The position numbers and the translations under genes were made by a program. A DNA stretch of 63,305 nucleotides from the IMG/VR virus record IMGVR_UViG_3300048592_001022, positions 1 through 63,305 of that record; one strand, 5' to 3'. The notes under the pieces were generated by a model. The model was given only the letters and a program-made list of their open reading frames with translations, searched no databases and was not told where the DNA came from. The stretch's first letter is position 1. Each line of letters begins with the position of its first letter. Below are positions 2,556-61,900 of this stretch, in pieces. Source of the stretch: a virus (Duplodnaviria > Caudoviricetes).

Positions 2556-3407
2556 TCAGATCAGCTTCAAATACTCCAAAGCTTCTTCGAGAATTTTTCG
2601 CATATCATCGTTTATTTCCGGCCTTTGCTTATAAAACTCCGTGAGTTTTGTTCTCATGACATACTTTCGAGGGCTCGGTTTTGCAGAAGCGCCTTTTCGC
2701 TCTACCAATCTATTCTTGATAGCTGCAAAAATCTCTTCATCTGAATCGAATGACTTCTGAACAAACTCGTGAAGTACGATTCGTAATGATAGTTTGTCTG
2801 AATTTTCGCGAATGAGAGACTTAATTTCATCACCCCATTCAGCCATTTTCAGGTAACGCTTCACAGTCTTTTCATTTCGCTCAAAATGACTACTAATTGC
2901 GTCAACGCTCCAGCCTTGCTTGGCAAGTTCACCATAGCCATCGGCAACATCGAGAAAGTGAAGTTCATCGCGGTTTAAGTTTTCGGCAAGTGCTGCACTT
3001 GTACTTTGAGATGAATTTCTATTTTGAAGGAGAAGACATGGGATTTTTTCAATCCCGAGAAGCTTTAATGCTCTAATTCTGCGATGGCCTGCTAAGCAAA
3101 CAAGCTGGTAAGACTTTTCAGTCAGGCGAAGCTCTACAACGGCATTCTGTAGAAGTCCATTCTTTCTAATAGACTCAACCAAAGCCTTAAATTTCGCTGA
3201 ATCTTCATCAATTGGATCTTTTCTAATGTTCTGGCTAATGTCGATATCTGTAATATTTAGGACAACTATCTTGCCTATAAGTCCCAGAAGTTTTTCAAGC
3301 TTCGAGTCGTCATCATTAGTCTGCGCATCTGACATCTGTTGACCGATACTCTTGAAAGAATTCTCAATTCTCTGATCCACTTTTCTCTTTTGATTTGCTA
3401 CTGCCAT
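2556..3407 (-). CDS. parB: ParB/RepB/Spo0J partition protein
   Basis: LVESIRKNGLLQ and LAGHRRIRA ParBc motifs, ENLNRDEL, HTH; directly downstream of parA. Confidence 0.9.
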   Translation of the reverse strand: MAVANQKRKVDQRIENSFKSIGQQMSDAQTNDDDSKLEKLLGLIGKIVVLNITDIDISQNIRKDPIDEDSAKFKALVESIRKNGLLQNAVVELRLTEKSYQLVCLAGHRRIRALKLLGIEKIPCLLLQNRNSSQSTSAALAENLNRDELHFLDVADGYGELAKQGWSVDAISSHFERNEKTVKRYLKMAEWGDEIKSLIRENSDKLSLRIVLHEFVQKSFDSDEEIFAAIKNRLVERKGASAKPSPRKYVMRTKLTEFYKQRPEINDDMRKILEEALEYLKLI

Positions 3408-3471
3408 GCTTCTTCTTCTCCGATTGGGATACGCGTATCCCGGCTTAAGTATTCAAATCCAAAGGATATTT

Positions 3472-4359
3472 TCAAAGCTCGACTTGCACTTCAATGTCTG
3501 GCGCTGGCTTGGCACTTCTCAAGGCATCGATATCGACTGGCTTTGCCGTCCGGCCTTGTCTACGTCCCCGCAACGCAGGTAACATCTCGCCAGCTAATGC
3601 TGAATACGCAACAGCAACAGGCGAGTCCTTGCGATAGAGATGCAAGCTCATGCTCCTCGAAGAGGCACTCGACACTTGCCTGCTCCTCGGTATAGTTGTT
3701 TTAAAAACATGGAAGTTTGCTTCTTTGGCGATCTCTCTCAATTTCCTCTCGTATACTTCGTGGGTCGCCATCTGCTTATCGATATTCGTCACAAGACAGC
3801 CAAGGAAGGTAAGCGTCGGGTTATGCCTCTTCTTCATGGCCTGGACAGCCGCAAAAACATTCGCCAGACCATCTACTGGATCCTTTTCAGGAAATAATGG
3901 AACAATGTAGTAGTGCGCCCCCACAATTGCCGACTGAAAGAAGACATGTCTTTTTCCTGGCCCAAGATCCACTATGACGGCAAAGTATTCTTTGACCTCT
4001 GGACAGTCCATAAGGATCTTCAACAAGAAAAATTGGTTTGGATGTCCAACCATGGATTGGTTGTACTCATCCATTCTATCGTCAGCGCAAAGCAGATCGA
4101 CGCCAGGAACATTCGTTGACACCCTGATCTTAGTTAGAGGCCACTCGTTTGCAATCGCAGCAAAAAGTGTTCTGTCTTCTTTAGCAAGAGCTGGAATGTC
4201 AGCACCCAACAATCTGGATGCATTCGCTTGCGAATCAAAGTCAACAACCAGCACACGTCTTCCAAGTAAAGAAAGAGCCGATGCTAAATTAACGGCTGTC
4301 GTAGTTTTTCCAACCCCGCCCTTATCATTCGGAAGCGCGATTATGTTTGGTCCAGACAT
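3472..4359 (-). CDS. parA: ParA/Soj partition ATPase
   Basis: KGGVGKTT deviant Walker A, VDFDSQAN, IVDLGP. Confidence 0.95.
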   Translation of the reverse strand: MSGPNIIALPNDKGGVGKTTTAVNLASALSLLGRRVLVVDFDSQANASRLLGADIPALAKEDRTLFAAIANEWPLTKIRVSTNVPGVDLLCADDRMDEYNQSMVGHPNQFFLLKILMDCPEVKEYFAVIVDLGPGKRHVFFQSAIVGAHYYIVPLFPEKDPVDGLANVFAAVQAMKKRHNPTLTFLGCLVTNIDKQMATHEVYERKLREIAKEANFHVFKTTIPRSRQVSSASSRSMSLHLYRKDSPVAVAYSALAGEMLPALRGRRQGRTAKPVDIDALRSAKPAPDIEVQVEL

Positions 4360-24490: not shown

Positions 24491-24683
24491 GAATTATCCC
24501 TCCCCCATTCTGGCGACGAATCGCAGTTTTCAGCTGATTTTCACGGCGATACAGCTCCCGCAGATCCGCCCGCGTCACGCGACGACGGTTCTGGTTCACC
24601 TCAATATCGACCTCCTGGCCGCCAGACTCGATTGCCATAATGGCCCGTTGTACTGATTCAAGCTGCTGCTCAAGCGTTGGCAC
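24474..24683 (-). CDS. Head completion protein (lambda gpW-like)
   Basis: GTG start after AGGAG; LESVQRAI..IESGGQEV...TRADLREL. Confidence 0.8.
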   Translation of the reverse strand: MPTLEQQLESVQRAIMAIESGGQEVDIEVNQNRRRVTRADLRELYRRENQLKTAIRRQNGGGIIHAIPT

Positions 24684-26556
24684 GTCTCGACTCCTTTTCC
24701 AAATAGTCTGCAAGTTGATCGATGTCTGTTCCGAGCCAGTAGAATGCGGCAAGCGCGTAGCGGTAGCAGTCGAACGCGTGATCGGGCGTACCCTGCGTGG
24801 TCTCGTAGACTGTCCTCCACTCCCCGTTGACGGCCTTGTGACGAGCCTTCGGCGCGATGAGCTGATAGAAGAAATGCCGGGTTTCCTTGTCATCCCAAAG
24901 CCATTTGGGAAAGTGACAGAACCCAGGCCCATACGGGGATTCCACCTTTCCATCCTCGAACTGTTTCACGAGAGCCACACTCTGAGCGAGCCCCGAGAAT
25001 GTCCGGGACTTGGTGGTGTTGGAGCCGACCGGGAACACCTTCACGCCAAATTCGTTATTGAGAGTCTGGCGCCCGATGACCGGCGTGGCATCGCCAGGCA
25101 TGCCCTTGATACAGATGAAATTCCGATGAAAGAGCGGGCCGACGTAGTCATGGACGGCCTGCGTGTTATGCCCGCCAGTGTCAAATGCAGCTGCTACGAC
25201 TTCAAGCTCAAAGCCCAGCGGATGATGCCAGCGTCGATTGAGACGTTGCATGACGCGGTCCCAGGTCGATCGCTGGTTCGCGTCACCACTGACAACTCCA
25301 TAGTCGAGTACCCAGTTTTCCTGGCCGCGGCCCCACCCACGAATGACAAAGTCGATGTGGGCAGGGTGGACATCGATGCCAGCAGTAATCAGGAAAATGC
25401 CAGGATTCAGAGCGTCTGCGGGGGAATCATCCAGAAGCTTTTCGACCCCCTTGATGTCGATCGTATCAGCAGGATCCTCCCAGGCTTCGGCCAGGACGTT
25501 GTTCATGAAAGCCTTTTTCTTCTGAATATCCTTCTGTGACTCTTCCCACTGGTTCCAGGCATCGTCCCAGGAAAAGAACTGCGGCGCCGCGTACAGCGCG
25601 CTCAGAATATAGCCTTTGACACGTCCGCCCGATTTATCCTCTGCGGTCGCAATCCACTTCCCGTTGCGAATCAGCCATACCTTGTCCACGTTTCGGTGCG
25701 AGTGCCCACAGCAAGGCGCGTGCCATTCACATTCACCGCTCTCAGTTTCTTTGGGGCCACGCATATGCTCCCACTCAATGAGTACGAATTCCCCGCAGCC
25801 TCTGCAGGGGACGTGATACTTCAGCTGCTGGGTATCTTCGACGTCCCGCGTAATGGGGCAGACACCCTTGATTGTGGGCGTGCTCAGGCGCAGAATTTTT
25901 CGGTTTTTCTGAAAGGTGCTGGTACATCCGAGAGCGATGGCCGAGGGATCGCCCTCGCCCTGGCAATCGGTGTCATATGCGGACTGCTCATCCAGCACCA
26001 GCCGGCGAACGGACTGCGAACGCAGCTCGGAGCTGGACTTCGCGGAGGCGATATTGATAAACCCTCCGGGAAAAGTCTTGATGTCCAGAGTGTCCTTTTC
26101 CTTCTGCCTGGCTTCTCCGATCTTGCCGAGCAAATCCTTGCAGCGCCGCAGGATTGGGGCTAGCTTCTGCTTACTGAACTTTTGCTTCGAGTCACGCGTT
26201 GGGAAAACGACCATGGCTGGCCCAGGCGATACCGCAGCACCCCATAGCATCCAGGCCGTTGAAAGCACAGTTAGACCCAGCTGTCGGCCTTTCCGAATGC
26301 GGACTTCCTCGACTCCGCTGTCGTCCTCGAGGTCGCGCAGGATATCGACCATGTACCACGTATCTTCAAAACTGATGGGACCCGGACGCGGTGTATCCTC
26401 GGGCAAAATGAGATTTTTTTCGCAGTATTCCTTGATTCCGACTCGCGGCGTTGGTTTGAGCCCTGCCTGCAGGAAAGGCATAATTCTACCAAGCGCCTTG
26501 TCGAGCGGGATTTTTTTATGCTTCAGCATCGTCCACTCCAGGCAAATCATCGGCAA
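24670..26556 (-). CDS. Terminase large subunit (lambda GpA family)
   Basis: LVLDE Walker B, STPT, CxxC...CCGH, GIDV, DHAFDC motifs. Confidence 0.95.
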   Translation of the reverse strand: MPMICLEWTMLKHKKIPLDKALGRIMPFLQAGLKPTPRVGIKEYCEKNLILPEDTPRPGPISFEDTWYMVDILRDLEDDSGVEEVRIRKGRQLGLTVLSTAWMLWGAAVSPGPAMVVFPTRDSKQKFSKQKLAPILRRCKDLLGKIGEARQKEKDTLDIKTFPGGFINIASAKSSSELRSQSVRRLVLDEQSAYDTDCQGEGDPSAIALGCTSTFQKNRKILRLSTPTIKGVCPITRDVEDTQQLKYHVPCRGCGEFVLIEWEHMRGPKETESGECEWHAPCCGHSHRNVDKVWLIRNGKWIATAEDKSGGRVKGYILSALYAAPQFFSWDDAWNQWEESQKDIQKKKAFMNNVLAEAWEDPADTIDIKGVEKLLDDSPADALNPGIFLITAGIDVHPAHIDFVIRGWGRGQENWVLDYGVVSGDANQRSTWDRVMQRLNRRWHHPLGFELEVVAAAFDTGGHNTQAVHDYVGPLFHRNFICIKGMPGDATPVIGRQTLNNEFGVKVFPVGSNTTKSRTFSGLAQSVALVKQFEDGKVESPYGPGFCHFPKWLWDDKETRHFFYQLIAPKARHKAVNGEWRTVYETTQGTPDHAFDCYRYALAAFYWLGTDIDQLADYLEKESRRANA

Positions 26557-28531: not shown

Positions 28532-29105
28532 GCTCTACCTCCTGGCGATAAAGCCTCTCAAAACACCGTAACGCGGCAAGCTGCCAATACGTCTGCATCG
28601 TGAAGTCGTCAAGACTTGGTGGATCATCCACCCAATAATCTCTGGTCGACTCCAGAAGACTGTCATACTCGGCTTCCGAGAGTCTGTCAGCGTCGGACAC
28701 CAGAAGCTCCTTCTTGGCATCTGTCAGAAGACGCACCATGCTGGGCCTGGATTTCAGACCATACTTGGGCCTTTCCTTCTCTGACTTGATCGATTCTTCC
28801 AGCCACTTGCAAGCTTCACGTCGGGATCGCTCCTTGACCTCAAACTGCTGAGGCACGGACTGCATGAGGTAGCCCAGCGAGTCGATACTCTCAAGAAGCC
28901 ATTTTAGATTTCTGTGATAGAACATCAGACAGCCAACATCACCTGATAGAGTCACAACACCTGGGGCGTAGGAAACCTGGAACCAATAAAACGATTCGTC
29001 CGGGTGCCGGACTTTGAAATATCCAGTGAGCGTGCCACGCTCGCTTTCCACGATTTTATGCTTCGATAGCCTCTCGTCCATGTGCGGATATGGGAACTCA
29101 GCCAC
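28509..29105 (-). CDS. Hypothetical phage protein
   Basis: 198 aa; PGVVTLSGDVG segment; RBS upstream. Confidence 0.7.
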   Translation of the reverse strand: MAEFPYPHMDERLSKHKIVESERGTLTGYFKVRHPDESFYWFQVSYAPGVVTLSGDVGCLMFYHRNLKWLLESIDSLGYLMQSVPQQFEVKERSRREACKWLEESIKSEKERPKYGLKSRPSMVRLLTDAKKELLVSDADRLSEAEYDSLLESTRDYWVDDPPSLDDFTMQTYWQLAALRCFERLYRQEVERETKRDC

Positions 29106-29117
29106 TTAAAAATCCTT

Positions 29118-29411
29118 TCATTCTTCAAAGTAAATCATCCCTGCATTCCACCAACGCCCCACTGTGTTCAGCTCTTTTGTGGGATAGAAACTCTCATAGT
29201 TGCGACCAACTTTTCGCCTTTCTGGCTCAATCAGGCGATTGAGAGCCTTGCTAACAGCCACTTTGCTCAGGCCCGTTTTCTCGGCAATTTCAGTCAGGGA
29301 CCAGCCACCTTGCTTGTATGCGTAGCTTTCCAGATCCCCAACCCATTCCCCGTAGGGACGACCACCGCTGCCCTCTCTGGGCCGATCTTTCGACAATCTT
29401 CCAATCAGCAT
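29118..29411 (-). CDS. HTH DNA-binding protein
   Basis: SLTEIAEKTGLSKVAVSKALNRL. Confidence 0.65.
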   Translation of the reverse strand: MLIGRLSKDRPREGSGGRPYGEWVGDLESYAYKQGGWSLTEIAEKTGLSKVAVSKALNRLIEPERRKVGRNYESFYPTKELNTVGRWWNAGMIYFEE

Positions 29412-29530
29412 CTTGACCTCAACAATCCCTTAAGATAGGCTTTCCCCACATTTTGTTATGTGGGGCCGCTTTATGAGCGGCCTTTTTTATTTCTCACGCC
29501 TCGAAAATATCGTCACTTCAATCTTAATCA

Positions 29531-29647
29531 CTTTACAAAGTTAACGCGTTAACTTAGAAATGTATTTGTGTTCAGGAAATACCTGGACGGGCATGTGAGT
29601 AGCAAGCCTCACGCGGACCCTGATGGGCGGGGGAATCCGTTCTTTTT
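29531..29647 (+). repeat. 117-bp inverted repeat, left copy (pairs with 31559-31675; 2 mismatches)
   Basis: Direct comparison with the reverse complement of 31559-31675. Confidence 0.95.
29532..29560 (+). promoter_or_regulatory. Sigma70-like promoter with palindromic operator in the spacer (site 1)
   Basis: TTTACA-17 nt-TAGAAA with AAGTTAACGCGTTAACTT at 29538-29555. Confidence 0.75.
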
Positions 29648-29648
29648 T
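29567..29648 (+). ncRNA. Putative small structured RNA A (copy 1)
   Basis: Upstream promoter; hairpins GUUCAGG/CCUGGAC and GUGAG/CUCAC; terminal stem plus U-run; duplicated near-identically. Confidence 0.55.
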
Positions 29649-29649
29649 A

Positions 29650-29783
29650 TGCCCTGCTCTTGGACTCCCACGGTTTGCCCTGAAATTTGAGACTTCAGCC
29701 CGTTTGGCCTTCACTCAGATTGTGACTTGCCGCTTCGATGCGACATATGTACTCAAAATTTCCGGCTTTTCCCTCCCTTCCTA
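29650..29783 (-). ncRNA. Putative structured RNA B (copy 1)
   Basis: Downstream of promoter 2; shares UCUGAGU.AAG.CC..GG.UGAA..CUCAAA..AGGG.AAACCGUGG with 31422-31553, with covarying stems. Confidence 0.5.
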
Positions 29784-29789
29784 AGAATA

Positions 29790-29818
29790 GTTCTAAATTA
29801 ACGCGTTAACTTTGTAAA
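29790..29818 (-). promoter_or_regulatory. Promoter/operator site 2
   Basis: TTTACA-17 nt-TAGAAC on minus strand; palindrome at 29795-29812 (1 mismatch). Confidence 0.7.
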
Positions 29819-29845
29819 GGGGAATTGCTTCCCCTTCCCTTTATT

Positions 29846-30103
29846 TTAGTTGATGGTTTTCCGTGCTTCTCTGACCACTACCTCGCGCAAGCGAGACCGG
29901 AGATGGTCCCGCAGGTCAACCACGTCCATGAATGGCTCTTCGCATTCATCCAGGGAATCGTCGGTTATGATGTCTTGCCGCTCCAAACATATCTGCAGAA
30001 CTTCACGCACGGACAGCCTGCTACAAATCGAATTGCAAACTTCCCACCGTTTGGACATAGGCACGCGCTTGCAATAGCTAAGCAGAGTTTCATAGGTCAG
30101 CAT
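29846..30103 (-). CDS. Hypothetical protein (start at MLTYETLL)
   Basis: GGAGG upstream; end of the ArdA operon. Confidence 0.55.
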   Translation of the reverse strand: MLTYETLLSYCKRVPMSKRWEVCNSICSRLSVREVLQICLERQDIITDDSLDECEEPFMDVVDLRDHLRSRLREVVVREARKTIN

Positions 30104-30515
30104 AGGCGTGCTCCTCCATTTTAACGAAACCCTGAGCAGCAATGTTCTGCAGCCAAGTTGTAAGGAAAGCATTCTGCTCTTTCTGCCTGCGTGGCCAGAA
30201 GCTTTTGCGGTCTTCTGTGTATACCGGAATCGCGTGCATGCCTGCGTGCTGAATGGAAAGCGCTTCAATCGTCCCGTCTTTTACTTCCAAAATCATTTCC
30301 GGGTCTACCATCAGATCCCCGTTGCAACTGTACCAATGAGCCATTGCAACAAGAATTCGACCGTTTCCTCGTTCGATGGCTTCGACGCTCAAAGGCATAT
30401 AGCCAGAAGATTCCAGACGCGTGTATGACTTGATCTGTTCATAATTCCGAATACCAAGAATATTGGCAAATCGTTTGAAATTTCTCTCGTATACTGTCGT
30501 CATGATTGACCTCAT
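30090..30515 (-). CDS. DUF6908/DUF1249-like protein
   Basis: GYMPLSVE...AHWY..NGDLM.DPEM...N.FL..WL.NI..QGF. Confidence 0.75.
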   Translation of the reverse strand: MRSIMTTVYERNFKRFANILGIRNYEQIKSYTRLESSGYMPLSVEAIERGNGRILVAMAHWYSCNGDLMVDPEMILEVKDGTIEALSIQHAGMHAIPVYTEDRKSFWPRRQKEQNAFLTTWLQNIAAQGFVKMEEHAYADL

Positions 30516-31003
30516 GGGTAGTAGAAAACACCATCATCTGTTTCAAGATATCCAAGACTTTTCAGGTAGAATCCATAGGCGTCGGCATCAATGTAATCAG
30601 CCAAGTACGCGTTAAACTCTCCCATAACCCCGCTCGCAAGGTAAAGAATCGCCACTTCCGTGAGACCCATTCCCTCGTAGTAGACCACGCTATCAAACAG
30701 TTCCAGAGCCGAGGATAGCGTGCATTTTTTGTGCTGTATCAGGTAGAAAAGTCTTGCTGTATCAAAGTCCGAGAAGCCCTTCAGAATGCGGACCTGTTCA
30801 TTCAAAGTGAAAATATCGCAATCTTCGTGGACCAGTCCCGTATCGTCATCGTCCCACATGCTTAGCACAACTTCGCCCGTGCTTTTGGCTCGAATCTCTT
30901 TCATTGCTCGGGCCAACTCTGTGCTGGTTGTGGGCAAAACAATCCATCTATCGAGCATAAAGCCAAGGTTTGCGGCTTCCCGGTTTGCTATACAGACCCG
31001 CAT
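30512..31003 (-). CDS. ardA: ArdA-like antirestriction protein
   Basis: MRV.IAN...W..LP N-terminus; acidic; LADYIDADAYG...ETDDG C-terminus. Confidence 0.75.
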   Translation of the reverse strand: MRVCIANREAANLGFMLDRWIVLPTTSTELARAMKEIRAKSTGEVVLSMWDDDDTGLVHEDCDIFTLNEQVRILKGFSDFDTARLFYLIQHKKCTLSSALELFDSVVYYEGMGLTEVAILYLASGVMGEFNAYLADYIDADAYGFYLKSLGYLETDDGVFYYP

Positions 31004-31014
31004 AATTCCTCCGT

Positions 31015-31260
31015 TTAGTGCAAAGCTACAGCGAAGAGATCGCCGTCCTGCTCAAGACGCCATCTGACACCATTCTTGTCAATATACACTGCGTGCTGCA
31101 TCACTTCGTCCCAGGCTTCCCAATAGTCGGGCGTATCTGCATCTCGAAGCGCCAAGTAATCATTCGTATCAAGGCCCCAGCTGGGCAGGTCGAAAATATC
31201 AAAGAATGTTGCTGGTAAGTTGGTACCCCAGAATCCATCAATCAAAAGTACGCGGTCCAT
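31015..31260 (-). CDS. Small acidic hypothetical phage protein
   Basis: YWEAWDEV...LEQDGDLF; first gene after promoter 3. Confidence 0.7.
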   Translation of the reverse strand: MDRVLLIDGFWGTNLPATFFDIFDLPSWGLDTNDYLALRDADTPDYWEAWDEVMQHAVYIDKNGVRWRLEQDGDLFAVALH

Positions 31261-31311
31261 AAAAAAACTCCATTTTGTTAGTGGGTAGGGCTTGCTTGCC
31301 CGACATCAACA

Positions 31312-31340
31312 TTTATAAGTTAACGCGTTAACTTTGTAAA
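31312..31340 (-). promoter_or_regulatory. Promoter/operator site 3 (ArdA operon)
   Basis: TTTACA-17 nt-TATAAA; perfect palindrome at 31317-31334. Confidence 0.75.
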
Positions 31341-31386
31341 TTGGTTTAAACCTGTTTTTGTTGAGATAATGTTAACTAATTTAATC

Positions 31387-31415
31387 TTTTCAAAGTTAAC
31401 GCGTTAGGTTAGAAT
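31387..31415 (+). promoter_or_regulatory. Promoter/operator site 4
   Basis: TTTTCA-17 nt-TAGAAT; AAGTTAACGCGTTAGGTT at 31393-31410. Confidence 0.65.
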
Positions 31416-31421
31416 TATATC

Positions 31422-31553
31422 AGTAATTGAGAGGAGGGACCTGACCATGAGCTACTAATCTATGCCGCTGAGACGGCATCAGCCATCTGAGTAAAGACCC
31501 GATGCGGTTGAATGCTCAAAAATAAGGGAAAACCGTGGCGGTCCGAGCGCCAC
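31422..31553 (+). ncRNA. Putative structured RNA B (copy 2)
   Basis: Hairpins UGCCG/CGGCA, GACC/GGUU within UGAG/CUCA, GUGGCG/CGCCAC; homologous to 29650-29783. Confidence 0.5.
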
Positions 31554-31558
31554 AAAAG

Positions 31559-31675
31559 AAAAAGAACGGATTCCCCCGCCCATTAGGGTCCGCGTGAGAC
31601 TTGCTACTCACATGCCCGTCCAGGTATTTCCTGAACACAAATACATTTCTAAGTTAACGCGTTAACTTTGTAAAG
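31559..31675 (-). repeat. 117-bp inverted repeat, right copy (promoter/operator site 5 plus RNA A copy 2)
   Basis: Reverse complement of 29531-29647; palindrome at 31651-31668. Confidence 0.95.
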
Positions 31676-31730
31676 GTGAATTTTATAGGAAAATAGCGAG
31701 GAATAGCGGCGAATAGCGCCGCTATATTGA

Positions 31731-32540
31731 TCAGACTTTTTCGCCCCACATCAGGCTGCGGAACGCCTCGCGGACCTGGGCCGGTACCACGCCGTTGCCC
31801 AAGGCTTTAAAGCGGTCCATCCGGTGGGCACACCCATGAGCCACTCGACGAATTCCACATTCAGAAGCCCACCCACCGAATCGCTCAAAGGCGGTGTGTT
31901 GCGATTCTGACCCGAGTGGCCAGGCTTCCGATAGTCCCGTGTAACCGGCGTCGGCCAGAGGTTGTGCCTCGCCATCTGGTGTAGCGATGGACGCCGCGTT
32001 GCCGACTGCCCGGACGATCGGTTGCTCCCTGAATGCGCGGCCATTGGCGTGGGCAGCAAGCAGGAACCATCGGTTTCGGATGTGCGGCGCACCGACTTCT
32101 TGAGCCGATAGCATACGCCACCTGCAATCATACCCTCGGCTGGCAAGTTCTGTGAGAACGCGGTCCAGGCCTCGGGTTCTGATAGCTGGCACATTCTCGA
32201 AGAAGAGGAAGCTCGGCTCGATTTCGTCGGCGAGACGCATGATCTCGAAAAAAAGACCGGAGCGCTTTCCCGCCAGGCCCGCGCCAGCTCCTGCGCAGCT
32301 GATGTCCTGACATGGAAAGCCGCCGTATATAATGTCGACAACTCCCCGCCAGGGCCGGCCATCGAGGGATCGGACATCGTCCCAGATGGGAGCATAGGGA
32401 ATATCGCTATCTGCCATTCGCGATAATAGGACGGACTGAGGATATCGCTCGATCTCACAATAGAGCACTGGTCTGACCCAGGGAGCGAGAGCGATTGAGA
32501 TGCCTCCGTAACCGCTAAAGAGATCCAGGCCATTGATCAT
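31731..32540 (-). CDS. C5-cytosine DNA methyltransferase (alpha chain)
   Basis: DLFSGYGG, GGFPCQD, ENV, PHIRNRWF, ALGNGVVP motifs. Confidence 0.93.
   Translation of the reverse strand: MINGLDLFSGYGGISIALAPWVRPVLYCEIERYPQSVLLSRMADSDIPYAPIWDDVRSLDGRPWRGVVDIIYGGFPCQDISCAGAGAGLAGKRSGLFFEIMRLADEIEPSFLFFENVPAIRTRGLDRVLTELASRGYDCRWRMLSAQEVGAPHIRNRWFLLAAHANGRAFREQPIVRAVGNAASIATPDGEAQPLADAGYTGLSEAWPLGSESQHTAFERFGGWASECGIRRVAHGCAHRMDRFKALGNGVVPAQVREAFRSLMWGEKV
31751..32533 (-). CDS. Overlapping alternative-frame polypeptide carrying a TRD/motif IX-like segment (beta chain); start uncertain
   Basis: LLPTPMA, LWPTP, LNVEFVEWLMGVPTGWT in a nested same-strand frame. Confidence 0.65.
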   Translation of the reverse strand: MAWISLAVTEASQSLSLPGSDQCSIVRSSDILSPSYYREWQIAIFPMLPSGTMSDPSMAGPGGELSTLYTAAFHVRTSAAQELARAWRESAPVFFSRSCVSPTKSSRASSSSRMCQLSEPEAWTAFSQNLPAEGMIAGGVCYRLKKSVRRTSETDGSCLLPTPMAAHSGSNRSSGQSATRRPSLHQMARHNLWPTPVTRDYRKPGHSGQNRNTPPLSDSVGGLLNVEFVEWLMGVPTGWTALKPWATAWYRPRSARRSAA

Positions 32541-33310
32541 TCCCCCACTCCGATAGCGAAAACATTCCCGAGAACCTTGGCTTTAAGCCGATATTTTTCA
32601 GCAATGCGCTCCACAATCTTCCCGCAGAAATGGGGCTCGATCTCGACACCAAGCGCCACCCGTCCGGTCTCCTGTGCGGCCGCGAAGATCACCCCAGACC
32701 CTGCAAAGGGGTCGTAAACGACGTCGCCGGCATCGGTATGATTGAGAATCGGACGCGTATAAAGGTCGATCGGCTTCTGCGTGGGATGGATCCTTTCGGA
32801 AGGCTTGGGGACCTCGGCCTGCCAGACAGTGGTCTGCCTCCGGTCTCCCTTCCAGTTTGCGGTTTCACCGAAGCGAACGCCGTAGATACAGCTTTCGTGC
32901 TGCCAGTGATAGGCAGAGCGGGAAAGCGCTGCGCGGTTCTTTGCCCAGATGATGAGCTGCCGCGGCTCGTAGTCGCCGTCGCGTGCCGCCTGGAGAGCCA
33001 CATCAGTGGCAGTCGCGGCGTGCCAGATATAGGCGATCTTGGCTTGTGAGAGATAGAATGCCCGGGACCATGATGCCCGGTGGTCATTTCGGATCCTAAG
33101 ATCCTCCAGGGTGTTCCCCTTGGCAATCGTGGTCGACGGTTCCTTGCGGTCCCTGACCTTGAAATTCACGCCGTAAGGCGGATCCGTAATCATGAGGGTG
33201 GGCAGCTGCTCGCCGAAGAGCGGCGCGAGCATCGCCCGTTCTGAGCTGTCGCCGCACAAGAGCCTATGCTGGCCAATTTGAATGAGATCCCCAAAAACAA
33301 TTTTCATCAA
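32537..33310 (-). CDS. N6A/N4C DNA methyltransferase (beta class)
   Basis: HRLLCGDS, TDPPYG, HPTQKP, DPFAGSG motifs. Confidence 0.93.
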   Translation of the reverse strand: MMKIVFGDLIQIGQHRLLCGDSSERAMLAPLFGEQLPTLMITDPPYGVNFKVRDRKEPSTTIAKGNTLEDLRIRNDHRASWSRAFYLSQAKIAYIWHAATATDVALQAARDGDYEPRQLIIWAKNRAALSRSAYHWQHESCIYGVRFGETANWKGDRRQTTVWQAEVPKPSERIHPTQKPIDLYTRPILNHTDAGDVVYDPFAGSGVIFAAAQETGRVALGVEIEPHFCGKIVERIAEKYRLKAKVLGNVFAIGVGE

Positions 33311-53644: not shown

Positions 53645-54064
53645 TCAAATATTTTTCTGAGAAAGGGGATTTAAAACCCTACCCCAACACTCAAAATCCT
53701 TGACGTTATCAGTAACTATAGTCAAATCGTTGCAAGCCGCTGAAGCACCAATCAAAAGGTCCTGAGCATGAAATGTCTTTCCAATTCGCAGCATTTCAGC
53801 ACGCTTTAAGGCTGCTTTGGATGATATTTCTCGCGTAACATCCAGCACTTTTATTGGCGCAACGGTGATGAACTTTTCCAGAGATGCCAGTGCTTTAGAC
53901 ATTCCAGCATGAATAAGACCACTTTCTATCTCGTAAAGCACAATAACGGAAGTACAAACATCCGGATTGTCTTTGAGCCACTGCTGACAAATTCGACCCT
54001 TTTCACCACGATTGAAGAGTCCAGAAAGAATGCATGAATCAACTAGATACATTTTCCACCTCAC
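53645..54064 (-). CDS. vapC: VapC/PIN-domain toxin
   Basis: YLVDSC, E, DLLIGASA, VTDNVKDF motifs. Confidence 0.9.
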   Translation of the reverse strand: MRWKMYLVDSCILSGLFNRGEKGRICQQWLKDNPDVCTSVIVLYEIESGLIHAGMSKALASLEKFITVAPIKVLDVTREISSKAALKRAEMLRIGKTFHAQDLLIGASAACNDLTIVTDNVKDFECWGRVLNPLSQKNI

Positions 54065-54375
54065 TCAACGTCATCGAATTCCATAATTGGCTTCGGTTGT
54101 CCGCGAGGTAGTAAAATCTCCCTCTCGCCGTCATGGCCATCCTCTTTTGCTGCTTCCTGCATTTCCAGAAAGAGTTCATCAAGTCGCGAATTGCGGGATT
54201 GGAATGCCATAGCTTGAAGTTGTTCGAGCATCGCAACCGGAATAACTGCGACTTCCCTTGGCTCTCGCGTTTTTCGATCGACAATTATTTGTGGTTCGTC
54301 AAACGCATCACTGATCAAATCGGAAATCCGATTTCGCGCCTCACTCACTGACCACTCTTTACGACCGGGCTTCAT
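54061..54375 (-). CDS. Phd/YefM-family antitoxin
   Basis: WSVSEARNRISDLI..A..EPQII. Confidence 0.85.
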   Translation of the reverse strand: MKPGRKEWSVSEARNRISDLISDAFDEPQIIVDRKTREPREVAVIPVAMLEQLQAMAFQSRNSRLDELFLEMQEAAKEDGHDGEREILLPRGQPKPIMEFDDVE

Positions 54376-54391
54376 GCCTGTCCCCCACAAA

Positions 54392-54438
54392 AGTACATAA
54401 GTACATCGGAACAAATGTACCAAAACATAAGTACATAA
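54392..54438. promoter_or_regulatory. Repeated AAGTACAT boxes (putative TA operator)
   Basis: Three AAGTACAT copies plus inverted ATGTAC upstream of the antitoxin start. Confidence 0.55.
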
Positions 54439-54671
54439 TCTACTAAAAACAGGTGATGCGCCGCCCAAAACTCAGCGAACCCTGAGCTTTTTCGATCAAA
54501 AAAATAGATATCAATGATTTCATTTGGTTATATCAGCGTACAGTAGCAGGAAAAATTCGTCCAAAAAACTAGTGATTTAAGATCGCTATTTGTAAGGCAA
54601 ATTTGGCTATTCCACAAATTCTTCAGATTTATCGCTCAAGTTTTATTAAATACAGCCGAAGAGGCTGATAT

Positions 54672-56798: not shown

Positions 56799-57902
56799 CT
56801 ATTTTTTGGTGTTTTCAAGCTGCTTTTCAAGCTGTTCGCGATGAGCCCGTTCCCGCTCCGCTTGCCCTGATTTTTCCCCAACCTGCTTTTGGAGATCGCC
56901 AATCTGCTCGCGAAGACGGTCGACTTCGACCTTCAACTCGGTACGCAGCCGCGAAACTTCGGACGCTCGCTCCTCGGCTTGAGCCTGTGCCCGGGCAGCA
57001 TTCGAGCTTTCCAATGCCAGCCGTTCGGACGATTCCTTGAGTTGTCCGGTAAGCTGCAGAAGTTGATCGCCTGTTGACCTGGCTCGCGCATCAGATTCTG
57101 CTCTGGCATCACGCAACTCCTCGATGCGTTTTTCTGCCTGAGCTTTGTGGTCTTTAAGCTGGGTACGAAGATCCTCGATGGCTGCATACCTTTCGCCCGC
57201 CAGAGTGTTCGCGGCCTGCAGATCCCTTTCAAGGGTCGTATTCCGGTCAGTCAGGGCCTGTGCATGCTGTTCAGAGGATTCGAGACGCCGTGCGAGCCCG
57301 GTCGCGCTTTCTTCCCACTTGGCGGCTTCGCCCGATAGGTGCTGCACTTCTCCATTCAAAAGATCGATGCGGCTTGTCAGTGTCTCGATTTGCTTTTGCT
57401 GCGCATCCACGGTTCCTCGCGCATTTGCCAGATCCCTGCCCTGGCGTTCGATCTGCTCATCCTGGGCGCTGCGCTCTTCCTGGAGCTTGGCTATTTCGAT
57501 ATCCTTCGCCTTAACCACTGCTTCAAGGCGCTGAATTTCTCTACGCTGCTCAATCTCATCGCCCTCAGCCTCAGTCAATCTCTCTTGAGCCATTTCTTCC
57601 ACTCTGCGGATCCGGTCATTTGCCATTTGCGTGGCGCGTCCCCACAGGATGCCAGCCGCTTGGTTCAGAGCATTGCGCATTTCCTCCGGCAGATCGGTCG
57701 GCATTGAACTGACTGCAGGCTTCTTCTGGCGGCGCCACCGATTAAGAGAGGGACCAATGTATGAGTAGCTTCCGCCTTTCGCCTGGCGGATCAGTTCCTG
57801 GGTCGGTTTCTTCCCTTCAGCATCAAGAGAATCGGCCACAGGCCAGTAGATGGCATCGTATTTCCGCTCGTCTTCGCTCCGGTCATCCACCAAATCAATC
57901 AT
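56799..57902 (-). CDS. KfrA-like plasmid DNA-binding coiled-coil protein
   Basis: AD.L.AEG.KPT...IR...GGSYS.I...L..WR plus long coiled coil. Confidence 0.88.
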   Translation of the reverse strand: MIDLVDDRSEDERKYDAIYWPVADSLDAEGKKPTQELIRQAKGGSYSYIGPSLNRWRRQKKPAVSSMPTDLPEEMRNALNQAAGILWGRATQMANDRIRRVEEMAQERLTEAEGDEIEQRREIQRLEAVVKAKDIEIAKLQEERSAQDEQIERQGRDLANARGTVDAQQKQIETLTSRIDLLNGEVQHLSGEAAKWEESATGLARRLESSEQHAQALTDRNTTLERDLQAANTLAGERYAAIEDLRTQLKDHKAQAEKRIEELRDARAESDARARSTGDQLLQLTGQLKESSERLALESSNAARAQAQAEERASEVSRLRTELKVEVDRLREQIGDLQKQVGEKSGQAERERAHREQLEKQLENTKK

Positions 57903-61216: not shown

Positions 61217-61561
61217 CTAATGCCGGGGCTTCCGTTTCGATACGGCAAAGGAGCTTTCTCCTACCTCTGGCTCGACTTTAACCCACACAACATTCTCCGC
61301 ATCACGAATGGCCCGGACCTGCTCATGAAAATCAGCGATCATTTGCTGCTTCTCTGCCTCATGTGACTTTTTCAGCTTATCAATGACCGATAGCCATTGA
61401 TCGTTCACCTGCTCAAGATCATTGGCCGCCTTCACTATGAATTTTCTAAATGCGCGCTCACGCAAATGCAGAACCACGATAGTGACGGCGAATAACTGAA
61501 AATAGCTATTCAAGATCATTTGGCGCAGATGCTCACCTAAACCATGCAGAAAAGATTCCAC
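61217..61561 (-). CDS. Hypothetical membrane-anchored protein
   Basis: TM plus coiled coil; GAGG upstream. Confidence 0.55.
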   Translation of the reverse strand: MESFLHGLGEHLRQMILNSYFQLFAVTIVVLHLRERAFRKFIVKAANDLEQVNDQWLSVIDKLKKSHEAEKQQMIADFHEQVRAIRDAENVVWVKVEPEVGESSFAVSKRKPRH

Positions 61562-61663
61562 TTTGCCATATCCTCTATTGGTATCGACACCGCCTTATTA
61601 TACACCGGCAACCCGAACTATTTAGTTCGTGTTTTATATTTTCTGTATCGGGATAATCAGGGG

Positions 61664-61900
61664 ATGGACGTAGAAAATGCATACAACTCATTTCTGACCA
61701 GCCTTGCACAGAACGTGAAAGCGAGACGTGAAGCCCTGGGCATGACCCAGAAAGAACTCTCTCTCAAGTTTGGCTTCAACGAGCGTTACCTTCAGAAAAT
61801 AGAAAGCGGAACATACAGCCCCAACCTTTTCACTATATTCAAGCTCGCCAGGGCTCTGAAAACCACCCCATCTGCTCTTCTTGATAGCGAGACTAAGTAA
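61664..61900 (+). CDS. XRE-family regulator (controller-like)
   Basis: NVKARREALGMTQKEL...IESG..SPNL..IFKLARAL; palindrome CGAACTA-TT-TAGTTCG at 61614-61629 upstream. Confidence 0.85.
   Translation: MDVENAYNSFLTSLAQNVKARREALGMTQKELSLKFGFNERYLQKIESGTYSPNLFTIFKLARALKTTPSALLDSETK

Follow-up and report, generated by a model that had tools for sequence, protein, structure and literature searches.

Two inverted cassettes with a shared operator and a predicted antisense RNA flank the ArdA operon of a tailed phage: a possible early control module

The IMG/VR virus record IMGVR_UViG_3300048592_001022, a linear sequence of 63,305 nucleotides with an estimated completeness of 91%, was analysed as a whole and is referred to here as the window. 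It contains an anti-restriction operon encoding ArdA, flanked by two cassettes of about 290 bp (29531-29818 and 31387-31675), which are inverted copies of each other, as the original prediction had described them; their arms of 170 nt are 88% identical. The first 117 nt of their A halves, claimed to be inverted repeats with two mismatches, indeed differ at two positions, 29607 and 29622. Next to the first cassette lies the gene of a small helix-turn-helix (HTH) protein, HTH97, and two DNA methylase genes (31731-33310) adjoin the anti-restriction island on its other side. We tentatively read the region as a self-contained early control module, in which outward promoters that carry an operator would each be opposed by an inward antisense RNA, called RNA A; we put the chance of this somewhat below even. 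Comparative depth is limited to G001, an IMG/VR contig that shares 28546-31681 with the window at 87% identity, to the metagenome contig L176 and to a few read assemblies, in which alone the cassettes were found. Table 1 compiles the coordinates of the features.

Five promoter-like sites and a common operator

An 18-bp palindrome, AAGTTAACGCGTTAACTT, is found with at most two mismatches at positions 29538, 29795, 31317, 31393 and 31651 and nowhere else in the 63 kb. The five copies compare with 0.01 expected by chance, and none of 100 shuffled sequences reached that number. All of them have promoter-like flanks, consisting of TTTACA (once TTTTCA), 17 nt, and TAGAAA, TAGAAC, TATAAA or TAGAAT, and the palindrome fills the spacer at every site. 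The full pattern, TTTACA-17-TAnAAa, is matched five times in the window against 0.95 expected, again with none of 100 shuffles reaching five. Since the asymmetry of the flanks is identical at all five sites, their orientations are fixed, with P_A1 and P_B2 on the + strand and P_B1, P_ard and P_A2 on the - strand. Each cassette holds two of these sites in convergent orientation, while P_ard faces the operon ORF81-ArdA-DUF6908-ORF85. The five palindromes and their asymmetric flanks bear out the claim that the four cassette promoters share an operator with the ArdA operon.

Two other IMG/VR viral contigs carry six to nine copies of a different extended palindrome, built on the same GTTAACGCGTTAAC core with TGT...ACA flanks and spaced 0.3-3 kb apart. 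These may represent an unrelated operator regulon.

HTH97 is the sole DNA-binding gene in the block shared with G001. The protein is 94% identical between the two phages, with an identical helix-turn-helix stretch, and it gives weak generic HTH matches only, to no named family. It is a near-orphan, with one cluster at 94% and three distant full-length relatives among 1.8 billion representatives, and the genes that follow it are open reading frames (ORFs) of unknown family. We consider HTH97 the most probable repressor, one that would bind the palindrome. The window also encodes a ParB-like protein, for which the identity to its G001 counterpart is only 29%; because of this low value, ParB is a less likely operator binder and HTH97 is favoured. 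The CI-like repressor of the window has no match in G001, a contig of 56% completeness.

The predicted RNA A and the B regions

Downstream of P_A, three hairpins are common to all four stored copies of RNA A, two of which are in the window and two in G001. Hairpin 1 has a 7-bp stem and the loop AAAUA, and hairpin 2 a 6-bp stem and an 8-nt loop. Hairpin 3, called by the terminator scan in both cassettes, has a GC-rich stem of 7 bp with five or six U behind it. The folds are strand-specific: five of the 20 base pairs are G·U in most copies and A·C on the opposite strand, and RNA A is more stable than its complement in every copy (-29.6 against -21.7, -29.7 against -20.3, -27.1 against -22.1 and -27.9 against -27.1 kcal/mol). 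Among the stored copies, one pair is altered on both sides and four on one side, with one cell of the comparison broken; the pairing of hairpin 1 survives one double and two single changes. A third copy of A was found in run X11, by comparison of public contigs with the region; it matches 29591-29648 with three differing letters and one gap. Its hairpin 1 keeps the AAAUA loop, with two pairs doubly and two singly changed and the outermost pair lost, which supports the hairpin by an eye reading of the 30-letter 5' end of a read consensus. The support that covariation lends to RNA A is thin.

A scan of the whole window against Rfam 15 gave no match at gathering scores, in agreement with the suggestion that the RNA family is not a recognised one. 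Between 29400 and 31800, three matches with E up to 10 are at chance level (E 2.6-8.3; 13-19 bits against cut-offs of 44-100). Two lie in the ArdA operon, outside the cassettes, and the third, to SprD at 29463-29557, spans the upstream terminator hairpin and the palindrome of P_A1, not the bodies of A or B. Judging from its predicted promoter, its hairpins and its terminator, RNA A is most likely a real small RNA.

The proposed arrangement of two convergent RNAs between two promoters in each cassette is thus retained in part: A has a predicted promoter, three strand-specific hairpins and a terminator, and for B no bounded RNA was found. The terminator scan called no B-strand site between P_B1 and HTH97, nor after P_B2 up to 31900. 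Identity between the window and G001 is 0.91-0.97 for the promoters, 0.95 for ArdA and 0.88-0.91 for the A RNAs, and falls to 0.66 and 0.77 in the B regions, the least conserved part of the block. From about 29782, a B1 transcript would cross the antisense of A1 and of P_A1 and reach the HTH97 start codon at 29411, a distance of about 370 nt; the HTH97-proximal gap of 119 nt (29412-29530) has no consensus-like promoter. The Shine-Dalgarno sequence of B2 and its 3-codon ORF are present in both phages, and B1 does not match them. In run X11, the first ~70 nt of B1 (29720-29790) are replaced by 72 unlike letters. All four copies retain a B core of about 35 nt. It shows one exchange between G-C and A-U, and its invariant G·U speaks for the B strand. 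Contrary to the original prediction of a stand-alone RNA, "RNA B" is, on its predicted course, a transcript start and not a bounded RNA gene, and B1 would lead into HTH97.

Table 1. Positions of the features of the ArdA region in the window
Feature	Position	Strand	Description	Basis
HTH97	29118..29411	-	HTH protein of 97 aa, candidate repressor for all five operators	weak HTH family matches
Terminator-like hairpin and T-run	29462..29490	+	~45 nt upstream of P_A1; no + strand gene before it	terminator scan
P_A1	29532..29560	+	promoter-like site with the 18-bp palindrome	palindrome and flank scans
RNA A1 (predicted)	29568..29648	+	~81 nt; hairpin 1 29570-29588, hairpin 2 29594-29613, terminator hairpin 29625-29642 and U6	start placed from the -10
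B1 transcript start region (predicted)	29649..29782	-	variable 5' part 29720-29782; conserved core ~29660-29719	
P_B1	29790..29818	-	promoter-like site with operator; faces HTH97	palindrome and flank scans
ArdA operon, four genes	29846..31260	-	ORF81 31015-31260, ArdA 30512-31003, DUF6908 30090-30515, ORF85 29846-30103	
P_ard	31312..31340	-	promoter-like site with operator (31317-31334), for the ArdA operon	palindrome and flank scans
P_B2	31387..31415	+	promoter-like site, divergent from P_ard; operator with GG deviation, same in G001	
B2 transcript start region (predicted)	31422..31555	+	strong Shine-Dalgarno sequence, 3-codon ORF; no gene downstream in the window phage	
RNA A2 (predicted)	31558..31638	-	inverted copy of A1; terminator 31581-31564; second hairpin 31555-31533	
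P_A2	31646..31674	-	promoter-like site with operator; homology to relatives stops at 31681, just beyond	palindrome and flank scans

The cassettes had been described as having no sizeable ORF, and this description stands: ORFs of 30-57 codons overlap them, but no such ORF combines presence in all four copies with a coding pattern. A reading in which they nevertheless encode small proteins, through a 40-codon frame in A or as a type I toxin-antitoxin pair of convergent RNAs, is to us scarcely credible. The 40-codon frame starts from a GUG at the predicted 5' end of A and is open to the same TGA in all four stored copies, B2 has its strong Shine-Dalgarno sequence, and type I toxin-antitoxin loci typically have convergent RNAs with overlapping 3' ends. 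However, the differences between copies of the 40-codon frame are evenly spread over the codon positions (7/4/4 and 2/1/2 in the divergent part, 5/3/3 in the shared part, by hand count), the terminator of RNA A lies inside the frame, and the X11 copy has two extra letters that lead to a stop at codon 11, by eye reading; the frame was rejected as coding. We likewise reject a coding role for the MGGGIRSF frame and for the frames of the B strand, of which those of 54-57 codons are present in only two of the four copies. The ORFs behind the B ribosome sites have 3, 11 and 16 codons and are polar, not hydrophobic, and a small hydrophobic toxin ORF on one of two convergent RNAs, by which a type I toxin-antitoxin system is recognised, was not found in the cassettes.

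RNA A might instead act in trans, alone or with B, as an anti-defence RNA made at entry together with ArdA, for example as a decoy or sponge for a host immune protein, such as a Racr-type mimic of the CRISPR repeat; we regard this as unlikely, with some weight left to it. RNA A is located in an anti-restriction island beside two DNA methylases and under the same operator as ArdA, and its two near-identical copies would provide a double dosage, with a third copy in run X11. Racr RNA anti-CRISPRs are solitary repeat units, small non-coding RNAs that follow a promoter in a viral anti-defence context (PMC10651486); their defining feature is likeness to a host CRISPR repeat. RNA A resembles them in that it would directly follow a predicted promoter in such a context, with a 7-bp hairpin immediately behind the predicted start; it differs in its two further hairpins and terminator. 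The loops AAAUA and UAGCAAGY are constant in the four stored copies, apart from one C/U in the second, and AAAUA is also found in the third copy, but the stem sequence of hairpin 1 varies while its pairs stay, which is ill-suited to a strict repeat mimic. Besides the lack of an Rfam match, no target stood out in the phage itself: duplex energies of RNA A with 15 phage start regions are inside the background (mean -33.4, standard deviation 6.6), and its 11-mer matches in the phage, three against 1.07 expected, are all inside coding sequence. A bolder version, which we hold to be distinctly unlikely, would make RNA A the first of a new class of phage anti-defence RNAs, fired in two to three copies from the promoters that first become active after DNA entry, under the switch that also controls ArdA, and soaking up in trans a host immune protein or a guide-RNA-binding factor, with B and the repressor shutting A off.

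Relatives, carrier phage and transfer of the block

The block common to the window and G001 comprises cassette 2, the ArdA operon, cassette 1, HTH97 and most of ORF198. These elements are inherited together, and since 28546-31681 is shared between phages with unrelated terminases (35% identity), they would constitute the block that moves between phages. Cassette 1 has a counterpart of 98% identity in the metagenome contig L176. For both G001 and run X11, homology ends at 31681, and the X11 sequence beyond this point differs again.

These limits bear on a further reading, in which the cassettes matter mainly as DNA, as boundary elements of a mobile module and crossover points for exchange or inversion, with the RNAs as by-products. 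The end of homology just outside P_A2 and the occurrence of the block in phages with unrelated terminases are compatible with it, as is the fact that the phage encodes RecT and an exonuclease. In runs X5 and X8, the short-read contigs break exactly at the 83-nt perfect repeat of the A halves (29531-29613 / 31593-31675). On the other hand, the left limit of homology, at 28546, is not at a cassette, no target-site duplication was seen, and the orientation is the same in the three assemblies that cross a whole cassette (the window, G001 and L176), so that inversion was not seen. Pure crossover sites, moreover, need no strand-specific hairpins or terminators, and we think this reading improbable.

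Several variations were observed around the block. Together, the X5/X8 pieces of 14996, 2039 and 45746 nt come close to the length of the window phage. In G001 (L259 701-2380), a 1.7-kb insert lies between cassette 2 and the C5-methylase. It contains a 280-aa ORF without a family and, in the outward direction of B2, a receiver gene of the response-regulator type that stands alone (PF00072). The terminator at 29462-29490 keeps its stem and has an altered loop in G001, and shows indels in run X11. Just outside P_A2, at 31691-31720, three tandem 10-nt units starting with AATAGCG overlap the hairpin behind the C5-methylase gene. ORF85 (29861-30108), with which the ArdA operon ends, is hypervariable, with dozens of substitutions in L176 though the adjacent cassette is 98% identical there, with segments of equal length but diverged in runs X5 and X8, and with 76% identity to G001; diversifying selection or cassette swapping may account for this. 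ArdA itself matches PF07275 at 32.0 bits, against a gathering cut-off of 27, over residues 3-160 of 163 and profile positions 1-154 of 155; it is very divergent, and a word search gave a single cluster, at 96% identity.

DNA searches with 29400-31800 or 29450-31750 against phage, E. coli and plasmid collections gave no match. In IMG/VR, exact-motif scans that used the operator core, two motifs of RNA A and a 14-mer gave G001 only, among the matches listed, and in a metagenome scan with an operator pair L176 was the sole relevant one among the matches listed, the rest being unrelated TAACGCGTTA repeats. The latter occur as units every ~32-45 nt in contigs L099, L100, L114, L115, L149, L171 and L195 of one metagenome set, and are unrelated to the cassettes. 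A scan of genome contigs with an 18-mer gave one match, in a Bacteroidales metagenome-assembled genome, which we take as chance. Protein-guided retrieval of loci gave one locus with DUF6908, one with the HTH97 alignment and 80 with the terminase alignment; over 1.02 Mb, comprising these 80 terminase loci and the window, a covariance model of RNA A found the four known copies only, the next match having an E of at least 0.26.

According to the annotation of its ORFs, the window encodes a lambda-type large terminase (24670-26556) together with a small terminase, a portal and tail genes. Its further genes include RecT with an exonuclease, an endolysin, SSB and RusA, ParA/ParB genes at 2556-4359, and a PIN/Phd toxin-antitoxin pair, a KfrA_N protein and a CI-like HTH_3 repressor at 53645-54468, 56799-57902 and 61544-61900, respectively. 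Because no integrase family was found among the 57 ORFs scanned, the phage resembles a phage-plasmid or plasmid-prophage, and the carrier looks like a temperate, plasmid-like cos phage with plasmid-partition genes. Its terminase is at most ~31% identical to those of deposited phages; the nearest relatives, at 79-84% identity, bear the source names Oligoflexus or Pseudobdellovibrionaceae, names from which the host is probably a member of Oligoflexia.

The nature of the carrier is relevant to the reading of the inverted promoter pairs as single-strand promoters of the Frpo/ssi type, whose arms would pair on single-stranded DNA into a duplex promoter, as in the ardA-bearing leading regions of plasmids. 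The single-stranded cassettes fold as a panhandle with a 29-bp stem that contains the whole promoter (z -5.0 and -5.5). P_ard and P_B2, with arms at a distance of 46 nt, would have the Frpo layout: a loop behind the -35, and transcription directed into ardA. Frpo elements occur in intergenic pieces of 50-350 bp beside ardA, methylases and SSB (PMC11541004); the ORF-free pieces of ~300 bp studied here agree with them in their place beside ardA and methylase genes, and their arms could pair into a promoter. They disagree in their carrier, a tailed phage with double-stranded DNA, in a panhandle whose interior is branched, with no long hairpin, and in cassette stems that fire into their own loop. 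The element would package double-stranded DNA with its lambda-type terminase, no relaxase was found among the 57 ORFs scanned, and G001 adds an uncompensated mismatch to the P_ard/P_B2 stem. Any two opposed copies of a palindrome-bearing promoter, besides, pair by necessity. Taking both sides together, we judge a single-strand promoter function very improbable.

A candidate control module and known systems

In the early control module that we tentatively prefer, the five sites would be active promoters of host type, and with a common operator in their spacers one dimeric repressor could shut all of them. When the DNA enters a repressor-free cell, all five would open; P_ard would drive the anti-restriction operon, so that ArdA and its companions are made, and P_B1 would drive HTH97, which would bind the operators and close the regulon. 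The P_B at each end of the operon would start an unterminated outward transcript, B1 running into the HTH97 operon and B2 heading for cargo that is present in relatives and absent from the window phage. The inward P_A would make the RNA A of ~81 nt, fully complementary to the B transcript and hence a countertranscript, which would limit B through the collision of convergent transcription and through RNA-RNA pairing, and repressor synthesis would be delayed or limited. This opposition may also stop transcription from leaking out of the module, while terminators upstream of each P_A would bar transcription from outside, on one side that of the + strand at 29462-29490 and on the other, behind the methylase gene, a hairpin (31704-31724) that was read by eye and not called by the terminator scan. 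In its sequence anatomy, RNA A has its own promoter and terminator opposite an mRNA leader with respect to B1, as a countertranscript has.

Several observations count against this account. A look-up of sequencing runs containing the stretch listed no RNA run. The z-scores of the RNA A fold are modest (-1.4 to -2.4), with one opposite strand at -2.56, and the covariation in the four stored copies is not beyond that of shuffles, 143 of 500 of which reach it. The last base of the -10 hexamer is A at three of the five sites, C in P_B1 (TAGAAC) and T in P_B2 only; a strict sigma-70 scan called P_B2 alone, because the other hexamers do not end in T. The region of the B1 leader with which A would pair is ~150-230 nt upstream of the HTH97 start codon, away from the ribosome site, and no attenuator is seen there, 29412-29566 having no - strand terminator-like site and the hairpin at 29462-29484 having its T-run on the + strand only. 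B2 would run into the antisense of the methylase genes, where the window phage has no + strand gene, and cassette 2 is intact all the same. Finally, the proposed mechanism gives no account of the conserved B core.

Our literature search gave nothing relevant on ardA with an antisense RNA, a repressor or an operator, nor on Oligoflexus prophages. Short, terminated antisense RNAs directed against phage regulatory operons are exemplified by the sar RNA of the immI region of phage P22 (Arc/Mnt) and by the OOP RNA of lambda, which overlap a ribosome-binding site or the end of a gene. RNA A, unlike these, would overlap an untranslated leader only, and it is duplicated.

The nearest described logic, in our analysis, would be the control of the Inc18 plasmid pIP501 by CopR and RNAIII, two defining features of which, the attenuator and the replication gene, are not found here. 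In that plasmid, the CopR repressor acts at the sense promoter and a convergent antisense RNAIII on a 329-bp leader, with convergent transcription as part of the control (PMC4981023). The two systems have in common a small HTH protein and an antisense RNA that is short and structured, has a promoter and a terminator of its own and is directed here, by prediction, against a leader of ~370 nt. In pIP501, RNAIII induces an attenuator terminator and the target is a replication initiator, whereas the module has no attenuator and its downstream gene is a putative repressor. Furthermore, both the sense and the antisense promoters of the module carry the operator, and the unit is present twice, mirrored around the anti-restriction operon.

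A comparison with anti-CRISPR-associated (Aca) regulators leads to a similar mixture. In these systems, a strong early promoter of an anti-CRISPR operon is reported to have an inverted-repeat operator that is bound by a small HTH protein encoded nearby (PMC9410906, PMC6765145). Likewise, the inverted-repeat operator at 31317-31334 overlaps P_ard, the predicted promoter of an anti-defence operon. HTH97, in contrast, gave weak generic HTH matches and none to a named family, and it is encoded behind a separate predicted promoter outside the operon, whose cargo is ArdA. The module has, in addition, four further promoter-like sites with the operator, for predicted non-coding transcripts.

Anti-restriction genes need to be expressed immediately at entry and then silenced, and the timing of this in phages and phage-plasmids is known for few models. 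The module described here would place an ArdA operon, its probable repressor and an uncatalogued small RNA in two copies under a single operator, as a block that moves between unrelated phages and as a defined unit of ~2.6 kb in Oligoflexia, a group whose phages are almost unstudied. If RNA A damps the synthesis of the repressor, the module would work as a compact timing device for a burst of anti-defence expression; should RNA A act in trans, the anti-restriction island would gain an RNA weapon.

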